A stretch of DNA of 32,413 bases from Acutalibacteraceae bacterium (GTDB lineage: Bacteria > Bacillota > Clostridia > Oscillospirales > Acutalibacteraceae): contig JBJEQC010000236.1 in the NCBI GenBank assembly GCA_051881555.1, forward strand, positions 1 to 32,413. The letters run 5' to 3'. Under the pieces are notes generated by a model that saw only the letters and a program-made list of their open reading frames with translations, was not told the origin of the DNA and did not search any database. This document shows, one piece after another, positions 21,361 to 27,497 of the stretch (positions are counted from its first letter, which is position 1; every line of letters begins with the position of its first letter). The position numbers and the translations under genes are program-made.

Positions 21361-22164
21361 TCACCTTTCAGCAGGTATTTTTGACTGAAATTTCTTTTTG
21401 CTTTTCCATTTATTTCCCGTGCGACGCTCCGTAGAATTATCGTTCCAAGTGCTCAGATTGGAAAGGCAGAGCTTTAAGAAGCAGTTTTTATAAATATCAA
21501 AGCACTCGGATGTGCCGTTAAACGAATAATTCTCAACAACAGGCTCGCCGCCCGAAAGAAAAATATCACGCATTTCAAAAGCATTAATCAAATCGGCGTT
21601 TTCGTCCGTAAACCAACAGCCGAACGACGGGTCAAAAGCACACCATTTATTAAGCTCGCTTATGTAAACATGAGTAATGAAATGACAGCCGCTTTTAAAT
21701 TCCGATGAAATCATGCATACGGGATAAGCTTTAATACCGACAGCTGTCAGGCAATCCGCAAAAACTATCGCTTTTAACCTGCAGCATATTGCTTTTTTGA
21801 ACGGTTTGCCGAAAGAATATTGCAAAATTTTCAGGCTGTCATCGGAAATATTTTTACTCTGCGCTCCGCTGTAAAAAGTGTTTTCGGTCAGCCAATTCAT
21901 CACATTAACCGCTCTTTCAAAATCGGTCTTTCCTGCGGCAACATCATTCAATTTATATTTTTCGGCAAGCATTTTGTGCATTTCAGTTTCAGCGCACATG
22001 GCTTCAAGGCTTGTTTCGCTAAGCTCTGAGTTGTTCAAACCTCTGTCTTTAGCTTCAAGCGGTTCATCTTTTAATAATTTATCCGCATCTAAACTTTTTA
22101 CGGATTCCAGATAGTTTTCCCAATGCGACAGCTTCACACAGTTTATCAGTTGCTTGATGTTCAT
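21361..22164 (-). CDS. Transglutaminase-like (papain-fold) protein
   Basis: Putative Cys-His-Asp triad: ICCR...GCHFITHVY...WCAFDPSF. Start at ATG 22164 after GGGAGA; the ORF-track extension to 22203 runs into a duplicated RAYT fragment. Confidence 0.75.
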   Translation of the reverse strand: MNIKQLINCVKLSHWENYLESVKSLDADKLLKDEPLEAKDRGLNNSELSETSLEAMCAETEMHKMLAEKYKLNDVAAGKTDFERAVNVMNWLTENTFYSGAQSKNISDDSLKILQYSFGKPFKKAICCRLKAIVFADCLTAVGIKAYPVCMISSEFKSGCHFITHVYISELNKWCAFDPSFGCWFTDENADLINAFEMRDIFLSGGEPVVENYSFNGTSECFDIYKNCFLKLCLSNLSTWNDNSTERRTGNKWKSKKKFQSKIPAER

Positions 22165-22180
22165 GGTGTTTCTCCCGTTA

Positions 22181-22241
22181 TAAAGGCTGTTTGTTTTCTT
22201 CAATATGTATTTCAGCGGATTTTCGTCGATGTATTGCCAGG
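22181..22241. repeat. 61-bp direct duplicate of the RAYT gene 3' end (22738-22798)
   Basis: TAAAGGCTGTTTGTTTTCTTCAAT(a/g)TGTATTTCAGCGGATTTTCGTCGATGTATTGCCAGG; 60/61 identical. Confidence 0.95.
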
Positions 22242-22732
22242 GCGGGGGCTTGCTCCCGCCGTTTATGATATACTCAAAATGTTGATATATATGGCTCTTC
22301 GGTAGGGAACGCCGTCCTCGGCGTTCCGTTGAATTTGATTCATTTTCACGGACAGCCGCAAGGGCTGTCCCTACGATTTGTTTTCAATTTGTAGCGGACG
22401 ATGCCCACATCGTCCAAAATGCAGAGTGTACGAATTTTGCAGGACACGGTAGGGCGGGGGCTTGCTCCCGCCGTTTTGAATTTTCGAAATATAGAAATTA
22501 TTCACCTGCGGCGAATCGGTTCGTCGGGGACGCCGAACCCTACGGATTTTTCGTGAATTTGTGCGTTTTCAGGCGGTCGACCGTAGGGGACGGGTTGCCC
22601 GTCCCGCATAAACCAAGCCGTTGTTTTTATGTTTTCCCGGAACGCTGAGGACAGCGTTCCCTACGAAAAATTGTTATATATCAACAATTCTGCGTAAATT
22701 AACGGCGGGCGACCACGCAGGGTCGCCCCTAC
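22239..22732. repeat. REP mosaic array 2 (9 GTAG-type palindromes) directly downstream of RAYT
   Basis: D+ truncated 22239-22261, A+ 22302-22328, G- 22349-22374, E+ 22391-22415, D+ 22449-22473, C- 22517-22543, B+ 22583-22606, A'- 22638-22664, H- 22706-22732. Confidence 0.93.
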
Positions 22733-22736
22733 AGTA

Positions 22737-23243
22737 TTAAAGGCTGTTTGTTTTCTTCAATGTGTATTTCAGCGGATTTTCGTCGATGTATTGCCAGGCT
22801 TCCTCATAGTCTTGATCACATCGGATAATATGCTCATAATATCCTCTTTGCCAAACATGTTTATCAAATGGCTCAAATCTTCCGGCCTTGACATTGCGGA
22901 TATAATCGTTTGTCGTCATCGTCTTGAACCATCCGATTATTTCCGGTAGGGGCGACCCCGTGTGGTCGCCCGATTCATCGCTGTAAAGTGAAACCAGCAG
23001 ATGGATATGATCCGGCATAACAACATATTTATCTATTTGAAGATTAGAATATTTCTTTTCCAACAAAAGCACCCATTTTTCAATCATTTTATCCGGGTCA
23101 TTCGGGCGACCACACAGGGTCGCCCCTACGGTTTCGCCGAATAATTTTGCACGGTTATGAGTGCAAATTGTTACATAATATATGTTGTTCTGAGAATAGT
23201 CATAATCTTTCAGCCTGATATTCTTTCTTTTCGGCAAATTCAT
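22737..23243 (-). CDS. rayT: REP-associated tyrosine transposase (RAYT/TnpA-REP, HUH Y1 family)
   Basis: RLKDYDYS...YYVTICTHNR..LFG, HUH motif VMPDHIH, WQRGYYEHIIR, catalytic YIDENP. Flanked by GTAG REPs; no tnpB and no IS ends seen. Confidence 0.92.
   Translation of the reverse strand: MNLPKRKNIRLKDYDYSQNNIYYVTICTHNRAKLFGETVGATLCGRPNDPDKMIEKWVLLLEKKYSNLQIDKYVVMPDHIHLLVSLYSDESGDHTGSPLPEIIGWFKTMTTNDYIRNVKAGRFEPFDKHVWQRGYYEHIIRCDQDYEEAWQYIDENPLKYTLKKTNSL
22946..22972 (+). repeat. REP family H inside the RAYT CDS
   Basis: GTAGGGGCGACCCCGTGTGGTCGCCCG; encodes SGDHTGSPL on the - strand. Confidence 0.92.
23103..23129 (-). repeat. REP family H inside the RAYT CDS
   Basis: GTAGGGGCGACCCTGTGTGGTCGCCCG on the - strand; encodes VGATLCGRP. 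Confidence 0.92.
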
Positions 23244-23683
23244 TATGCTCTGCCGGTTGAGCCGAAGCCGCCCTCTCCCCTCTCTGTTTCGTCGAGCGAA
23301 TCCGCTTCAACGGGAGAAATGAGCGAAACGGGCATAATAACAAGCTGTGCAATGCGTTCGTCGGGATTAATTGTATAAGGCTCTTTGAGCTGATTTATTA
23401 CGCCGACGCAGATTTCGCCTCTGTAGTCGCTGTCGATAACGCCGACGCCGTTGAGCAGACCGATGCCGTGCTTTATCGCAAGCCCGCTTCTCGCAAACAC
23501 AAACGCCGCAAGCTCTGCGCTCGGCAGTTCAATGGCGATACCCGTCGGAATAACCGCCTTTTCGCCGCCGCTGAGAGTGATTGGTTCGTCAATGCAGGCA
23601 TAAAGATCCATGCCTGCGCTGCCGGGGGTCGCTCTGAACGGTATCTTTGCATTTTCCTTTAATTTTTTTATCTTAAATTCCAT
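23243..23683 (-). CDS. dut: dUTP diphosphatase (trimeric dUTPase)
   Basis: GSAGMDL, ARSGLA, GVIDSDYRGE, RIAQL, RGEGGFGSTG; start MEFKIKK at 23683. Confidence 0.96.
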   Translation of the reverse strand: MEFKIKKLKENAKIPFRATPGSAGMDLYACIDEPITLSGGEKAVIPTGIAIELPSAELAAFVFARSGLAIKHGIGLLNGVGVIDSDYRGEICVGVINQLKEPYTINPDERIAQLVIMPVSLISPVEADSLDETERGEGGFGSTGRA

Positions 23684-26676: not shown

Positions 26677-27458
26677 CCTTGTCCTTGAGGATAAGGTATC
26701 TCGTAGTGACGGATGAGGTGCGGAACGCCGGCGTTTCTTTTTGTTTGATGTGTTTTCACGGACAGCCGCAAGGCTACGGTTTGTTTTTCAATTTGTAGGG
26801 GACGATGCCCACATCGTCCCAAGGAAAAACATTTCATTATTCGCCTGTGGCGAATCGGAACGCTGAGGACAGCGTTCCCTACCGAAAAAGCCATAAATTT
26901 CAATGATTCTGCGTGAACAAAAAAACGACGGGAGCAAGCCCCCGCCCTACCCGTTCAGGAAACATTTTGCGGAGCAATTACAATCGGTCATAGGCGGAGC
27001 CTATCCATAATTTGCGAAGCAAACATCACTTTTGCGAAACACGGGCGACCACGCAGGGTCGCCCCTACCGGAATGTGCCGCAGGCACACTTCATTTCTTC
27101 ATTTTTTCAAGCGGGCGAACACAGTTCGCCCCTACCGTGTTGCCAATGATTTCTGCTATTTTCACGGAACAGCCGGATTATTCAGATTTAATAACAGGTT
27201 AGGTAGGGAACGCCGTCCTCGGCGTTCCGTGGGATTTGATATGTTTTCACGGACAACCGCAAGGGTTGTCCCTACGATTTTTTATTGAATTGATAATTTG
27301 TAGCGGACGATGCCCACATCATCCAAATGTAGAAATAATAAATTTTGCTGTATTCAAGGTAGGGCGGGGGCTTGCTCCCGCCGTTTTGAATTTATTATAA
27401 TATTTACCCAAATTATTCGCCTGTGGCGAATCGGAACGCTGAGGACAGCGTTCCCTAC
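26677..27458. repeat. REP mosaic array 3 (11 GTAG-type palindromes plus other hairpins)
   Basis: GGATGAGG-type element 26677-26718; G- (internally deleted) 26759-26777, E+ 26795-26820, A'- 26856-26882, D- 26926-26950, H- 27042-27068, F- 27112-27135, A+ 27203-27229, G'- 27250-27275, E+ 27300-27324, D+ 27359-27383, A'- 27432-27458. Confidence 0.92.
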
Positions 27459-27459
27459 G

Positions 27460-27497
27460 AAAAAGCCGCCCGCAGGGATTAACCCGGCGGGCGGTTA
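27460..27497 (-). terminator. Intrinsic terminator for the surface-protein gene
   Basis: AACCGCCCGC...GCGGGCGGCTTTTT on the - strand. Confidence 0.75.

Follow-up and report, generated by a model that had tools for sequence, protein, structure and literature searches.

We analysed a 32,413-nucleotide stretch of Acutalibacteraceae DNA (the window), in which a copy of the 3' end of a REP-associated tyrosine transposase gene (RAYT, also TnpA-REP) is fused to a truncated REP. Allele comparison indicates that this junction is likely the scar of a deletion of about 142 bp, running from the foot of an inverted REP to the CT before the catalytic motif, inside the remnant of a second, 'D-type' RAYT. 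We lean slightly towards RAYT catalysis, in some form, as its origin. The specific account in which a RAYT made the deletion by cutting and rejoining at two C/T sites (the slash marks the cut) is our leading explanation, which we hold at somewhat below even confidence.

The intact RAYT gene (22737..23243, minus strand) encodes a Y1_Tnp protein of 168 residues. It is an 'E-REP' allele, holding in frame one REP of type E with GTAG first on the coding strand (23104..23129, minus strand) and, between its HUH and Tyr motifs, an inverted REP of the same type (22946..22971, plus strand). The protein scores above the cut-off of Pfam PF01797 (Y1_Tnp), reaches 78.6 bits against a cut-off of 80 for NCBIfam NF047646 (REP-associated tyrosine transposase) and 31.1 bits against 55 for an IS200 model, and has E. 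coli TnpA-REP (4ER8) as its sole PDB match. Residues H79, H81 and Y152 of the HUH and Tyr motifs are invariant in alignment A1. The genome to which the window belongs (G000) encodes four RAYTs (contigs C236, C237, C36 and C192), and the three paralogues, at 33–42% identity, are low-copy, divergent and not IS-like. The intragenic REPs of the four match array families E, G, J and A, a differing family for each gene; for families D, F, H, I and K no cognate RAYT gene was found in the G000 assembly, and no D-type RAYT was found in this 94.85% complete genome. Most of 34 relatives inspected (the 30 best RAYT loci of the genus, locus L008 and the three paralogues) carry an in-frame REP and inverted REP, an arrangement that the available text of PMC6006769 describes as unique to subclass 2.4. 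Set against the motifs of that subclass, NH[IFV]H, WQ and YIxNNP, the window protein has WQ, and its DHIH and YIDENP are each one residue off. On sequence grounds, the system is best placed among the REPtrons of subclass 2.4 (Bertels group 4).

A mosaic array of nine REPs (E, A, H, I, D, F, G, A, D; 22239..22732, strand unassigned) begins 4 nt past the RAYT stop codon, where GTAG is intact, and is piecewise 94–96% identical to orthologous arrays in genomes G136 and G153. The initial annotation had described this array as bracketed by a 61-bp direct repeat of the RAYT tail, which we confirm: 22181-22241 and 22738-22798 are identical at 60 of 61 bases. The first copy (22738..22798, minus strand) is the 3' end of the intact gene and starts at CC/T just before the catalytic Tyr motif; no further copy of the tail at the 61-bp length was found in G000. 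Across the 52 of 90 REP clusters in G000 with both flanks readable, the longest bracketing match is 61 bp here, 46 bp at one other locus and at most 17 bp elsewhere. Shuffled flank pairs gave 8–12 bp in 139 of 150 cases, and the 61-bp match is beyond chance. The terminal D REP (22239..22262, plus strand) is missing the two initial bases of its GTAG foot, and the breakpoint is ambiguous by 3 bp because CCT at 22239-22241 (the junction, read on the minus strand) is common to the REP and the downstream tail copy; both details were already correct in the initial annotation. The downstream copy, with the adjoining ribosome-binding region (22165..22241, minus strand), retains that ancestral region and a 15-nt stop-to-start spacing, which the gene's own end does not, and its spacing and sequence are those of an array-free allele in genome G071. 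Its stop codon has been lost in the window only, being kept in G136 and in sequencing runs X3, X5 and X20. The loss (22180-22182) creates a reading frame of 340 codons that extends from the array into the following transglutaminase-like gene, and is likely neutral.

The junction is genuine. Misassembly had to be considered, with G000 in 261 contigs that often break at REP arrays, as had a very recent event confined to one strain. A Logan contig of run X3 covers 21703-22326, differing at 36 positions and with 3 gaps over 625 nt, the tail-to-REP join recurs in contigs of X20 and X5, so that three studies are represented (P3, P14 and P4), and genome G136, whose flanking genes are 93–95% identical, has the same join. 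The intact RAYT followed by the first REP of the array was seen in contigs of X2, X19 and X3. This support consists of assembled contigs rather than raw or long reads, and run X4, with no contig on the junction, carries no weight either way. As these sequences carry strain-level differences, either misassembly or a very recent strain-specific event is scarcely credible.

The event had also been called recent, which is refuted: the junction is old, common to strains about 94% identical (G136, X3, X5 and X20). The near-perfect match of the two tails does not date it, because the tail is almost invariant in single-copy alleles; in species whose flanking genes are 83–85% identical, a 58-nt tail core differs from the window gene at 0–2 positions. 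Concerted evolution of the two tail copies is not needed, as single-copy alleles of distant species are equally conserved. Two junction alleles exist, one in the window and in one X5 contig, the other, one base shorter, in G136, X3, X20 and another X5 contig.

Alignment of the locus in related genomes revealed several alternative states. The dUTPase gene (23246..23683, minus strand) is a fixed anchor upstream of the RAYT; the start of the RAYT overlaps the dUTPase stop (23243-23246), and the other RAYT paralogues of the genus directly precede conserved housekeeping-like genes, a placement as expected for domesticated, co-transcribed RAYT genes. The native downstream neighbour is the transglutaminase-like gene (21361..22164, minus strand; Pfam PF01841), which directly follows the RAYT in L022, L051, G071 and G135. 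Between these genes the slot behind dUTPase is variable, and five states were found: an intact E-REP RAYT directly before the transglutaminase-like gene (L051, and G071 for the 3' part only); an intact D-REP RAYT sharing that head and tail (G135 and G072, with a more distant one in G031); an E-type 5' end followed by array, D REP and D-type coding DNA (G153); an E-type 5' end, array, junction, tail and transglutaminase-like gene without any repeat (G136); and the window, with intact E gene, array, junction and second tail copy. The E and D alleles, each holding its REPs in frame, are 47% identical overall and near-identical from the residues before the catalytic Tyr onward.

These alleles suggest exchange of the RAYT core. 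E and D cores alternate at the dUTPase locus (L307:1267-1788, L308:1255-1776, L051:2052-2555 and L008) in genomes whose flanks are about 95% identical, and the breakpoints lie close to the start and shortly ahead of the Tyr motif. The core of the window RAYT is 91.5% identical to that of L051 and the flanks only 84%, and a core closer to L051 than its surroundings suggests that it too was exchanged.

Beyond the terminal D REP of G153, whose array is orthologous to that of the window (94–95% identity in pieces), the DNA is 87% identical to D alleles over 117 nt and has no match in E alleles. The 5' RAYT remnant retains 95% protein identity in G153 and 87.5% in G136, where the start codon is lost. 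We infer from this series that the terminal D REP of the window (22239-22262) originated as the intragenic inverted REP of a D-type RAYT allele that formerly stood here. The downstream copy is then most simply the tail of the D-type remnant, because G153 would show the undeleted parent and G136 the junction without the repeat. The D REP and this tail would have been brought together by the deletion, whose size was measured on D alleles. The duplication of the RAYT's own gene proposed in the initial annotation is disfavoured on the same two alleles. Either the intact E gene stood upstream throughout, its body being lost in G136 and G153 between two direct E REPs, or it came back at a later stage.

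For the origin of this deletion we propose the following steps. A lineage would have come to hold E-type sequence, followed by the array and then by the 3' remnant of a D-type gene, with the shared D REP linking array and remnant. On the coding strand, a RAYT that had bound a GTAG-first REP might then nick at the foot of the inverted REP, at the C/T inside CTAC, and at the C/T before the Tyr motif, whereupon the 3'-OH of the first cut would attack the phosphotyrosine of the second and the intervening single strand would be dropped, a step resembling the excision proposed for E. coli BIMEs.

The E. coli enzyme, which the initial annotation had cutting 3' of CT, in fact cleaves between C and T according to PMC3333891 and PMC8266576; the former places one site class, iREP II, inside the CTAC of the inverted REP and reports iREP-to-linker recombination in vitro. 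In the window allele, the donor break falls on the predicted iREP II C/T, with GTAG-first REPs on the same strand. The junction is therefore, by analogy, a good candidate for a C/T-to-C/T join, the cutting preference of the window enzyme being carried over from E. coli. An E-type acceptor, CC/T, reproduces the window junction exactly. In the two intact D alleles that have this tail the acceptor is C-T-T, and a clean join there would leave one T too many. The fit would require a D remnant with the clade's CC/T variant, which none of the 132 genomes searched shows. The shorter junction allele, off by one base, matches no clean join, and if it were ancestral there would be no C/T-to-C/T join. In G153, another deletion lacks CT and shows ordinary microhomology of about 5 bp, the E-side join of the array keeps its REP foot, and the segment between the two cut sites has no special fold (z -0.96). 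The literature consulted, as far as its text was available, held no biochemistry of a subclass 2.4 RAYT.

Breaks elsewhere in REP arrays were compared in a census of 1,328 inverted REPs from G000 and from loci of 15 other genomes; automatic homology mapping of array edges was too ragged for breakpoint calls. The whole foot is retained in 124 of the 212 REPs with unique flanks. The last seven REP positions gave 56 rows, from which 46 were dropped as single substitutions, palindrome-arm exchanges, indels or false cores; this curation was by hand and not blind, and removed seven of the 12 rows at the C/T position. Among the ten breaks to non-array DNA that were kept, five come directly after C-T (the window, L227, L323, L331 and L332), and the other five lie at other positions (two, one, one and one). 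Leaving out the window case, four of nine are at C/T, for which a binomial calculation by hand gives 0.03 at p = 1/7 and 0.09 at p = 0.2. Acceptors could be checked for two of the five C/T cases, and both read CC/T.

Locus L227 (G135, contig C7) is an independent parallel to the window junction: a 53-bp repeat (1443-1495 and 2377-2429) brackets an array of nine feet, and the second of its copies runs into an inverted REP at a CCT common to both, with the acceptor CC/T also present in the single copy of G072. Beyond this fusion follow another REP-arm-like CCT join, to a foreign gene fragment rich in AT, and after that one more truncated REP; the foreign DNA has distant matches only, away from the joint. 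L323 (2001-3118; G135, contig C67) and L331 and L332 (G136) have REP arrays fused at the foot C/T to AT-rich DNA, possibly by gene capture. In L323 a helix-turn-helix-like gene lies between two truncated REPs, beside a 137-bp, 99% identical duplication of array DNA. The parents of these three foreign-DNA junctions were not found, L331 and L332 being compared within the collected sequences only. Outside the window on its own contig (C236), a 119-bp repeat of 91.6% identity, stop codon included (38260-38378 and 38654-38772), flanks a REP array. It is the end of a serine dehydratase alpha-like gene, so named from reading the protein and without a family call; the array starts 6 nt past the stop, and there is no CT at the far junction. 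On a bias of other junctions towards CT, raised as a check in the initial annotation, the four of nine curated breaks speak for it, and the serine dehydratase repeat and the second G153 deletion against it.

The same deletion could have arisen by an ordinary route, replication slippage or end-joining at 1–3 bp of microhomology beside a hairpin, with the CT coincidental. Short microhomology is usual at deletion joints, and the neighbouring deletion in G153 is of that kind. Two junction alleles exist, the deleted stretch holds 10–11 CT dinucleotides, so that landing on one is not rare, and most array edges retain their foot. This route accounts for the junction nearly as well as a RAYT join, and to us it has a serious chance of being right while staying short of probable. 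What speaks against it is that the donor break lies exactly at the predicted iREP II site, that four of the nine other curated breaks share this position, and that both checkable acceptors read CC/T. A third account invokes an old strand transfer, in which a RAYT joined the 3' end of the inverted REP to the C/T of the upstream E gene, copying tail and array, and later recombination of the new tail copy with the remnant's own tail removed the second array and the D-type DNA. The CC/T of the E gene predicts the window junction letter for letter, L227 resembles such a duplication without any need for a remnant, and a rolling amplification model for E. coli is in print (PMC3333891, Figure 7B legend). 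Strand transfer nevertheless needs two or more events where one deletion suffices, the junction occurs in G136 without intact gene or repeat, and G153 offers a parent for the simple deletion; we regard it as improbable.

A long target-site duplication from staggered cuts in both strands was rejected. The E-side REP foot is intact in the window and in X3, the four bases before the E-side REP differ between strains, and the repeat is missing from G136; in G153 the terminal D REP is followed by D-type DNA. Seven pairs of filled and empty array sites gave overlaps or gaps of -5 to 151 bp and no long repeat, with edges too diverged to call. Tail duplications like that of the window were not seen elsewhere among the 30 best genus RAYT loci, L008 and the three paralogues, nor did 125 D-REP loci of GTDB genomes (80 with full flanks) hold a clear bracketing non-REP repeat fused to a REP. 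Viral contigs scanned for the RAYT tail gave 0 hits, and metagenome contigs gave one, an array-free allele.

Returning to RAYT cleavage and rejoining, what survives of the proposal in the initial annotation is a candidate footprint, based on the iREP II site, the parallel in G135 and a modest pile-up of breaks; its recency does not, and the involvement of the RAYT's own gene is disfavoured. A broader reading would be that subclass 2.4 RAYTs cut and rejoin at the C/T of inverted-REP feet in living cells, leaving in these gut bacteria a readable fossil record of deletions (here), array-bracketing duplications (L227) and foreign-gene fusions (L323, L331 and L332), and that this system also exchanges RAYT cores within one fixed operon slot, every core bringing its own family of in-frame REPs. 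We offer this tentatively, and think it doubtful as a whole.

Among described systems, the subclass 2.4 REPtrons, as far as PMC6006769 could be consulted, resemble that of the window in their Y1 HUH protein with WQ and Tyr-x-x-x-NP, in long GTAG-footed REPs in frame between the HUH and Tyr motifs, and in several divergent copies per genome (four in G000). The window RAYT differs in having DHIH and YIDENP instead of the printed consensus, and its system in alternative alleles that swap REP families at one locus and in mosaic arrays of many families. E. coli TnpA-REP and its BIMEs (group 2; PMC3333891, PMC8266576 and PDB 4ER8) share the GTAG foot and the position of the junction on an iREP II C/T, and excision, amplification and capture of flanking DNA, including tnpA-REP pieces, are proposed or noted there. 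The E. coli system nonetheless belongs to another subclass and has REPs that flank the gene instead of lying inside it, and C/T specificity is a property of the E. coli enzyme that would extend to the window by analogy. Pseudomonas REPINs, in the parts of PMC3116915 available, show deletions that end asymmetrically within a REP and are interpreted as possible intermediates of RAYT action, and tandem clusters that include flanking DNA; those deletions are rare reads that lose a REP doublet, whereas the window has an old, fixed scar in which coding DNA on the 3' side of an inverted REP is gone. In IS200/IS605 excision (IS608), nicking one strand twice and rejoining its flanks would yield such a deletion, but the window has no IS ends, no tnpB nearby and no near-identical copies, and its RAYT keeps a conserved operon position.

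In the sources as available, the spread of REP and BIME repeats is described as unresolved (PMC8266576 and PMC3116915), RAYT cutting and rejoining has been established with purified group 2 and group 3 proteins, footprints of REP-doublet excision have been reported from reads (PMC3116915), and RAYT action in cells is treated as open (10.1101/2021.07.10.451892, 10.1101/2024.07.17.603846 and PMC3733652). The kind of structure described here is not new, because pieces of tnpA-REP genes captured in BIME regions have been noted (PMC3333891, Supplementary Figure S7). No paper on fixed C/T junctions or on RAYT-core swapping at one locus was found in a search that most subscription journals lay outside. 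If our leading explanation is true, the junction would be a rare trace left inside cells by a family of enzymes known largely from in vitro work. Natural junctions at the predicted C/T site, together with the parent alleles of sister genomes, supply precisely defined substrates on which a subclass 2.4 enzyme could be tested for the first time. If microhomology made it, the junction is an ordinary pseudogene scar, and the allele swapping remains of interest.

RAYT matches occur in 67 of 132 genomes of the genus and A-type REPs in 14 of the 132, with 31–113 copies in four relatives and 24 in G072. D REPs are found mostly in genomes of gut Clostridia, and pig-gut runs contain the RAYT locus, which makes a clostridial lineage of the gut the likely host. 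G000 has 384 REP-core hits in its 90 clusters, some palindromes being counted on both strands. Many REPs are chimeric, combining a forward and an inverted arm, which suggests template switching or crossover inside the hairpin. At L035 (G017, contig C8), a 38-bp copy of the RAYT's own intragenic REP and flanks lies just upstream of the gene. The window itself holds two more mosaic REP arrays (257-758 and 26730-27460), the second with intact feet at its D REPs.
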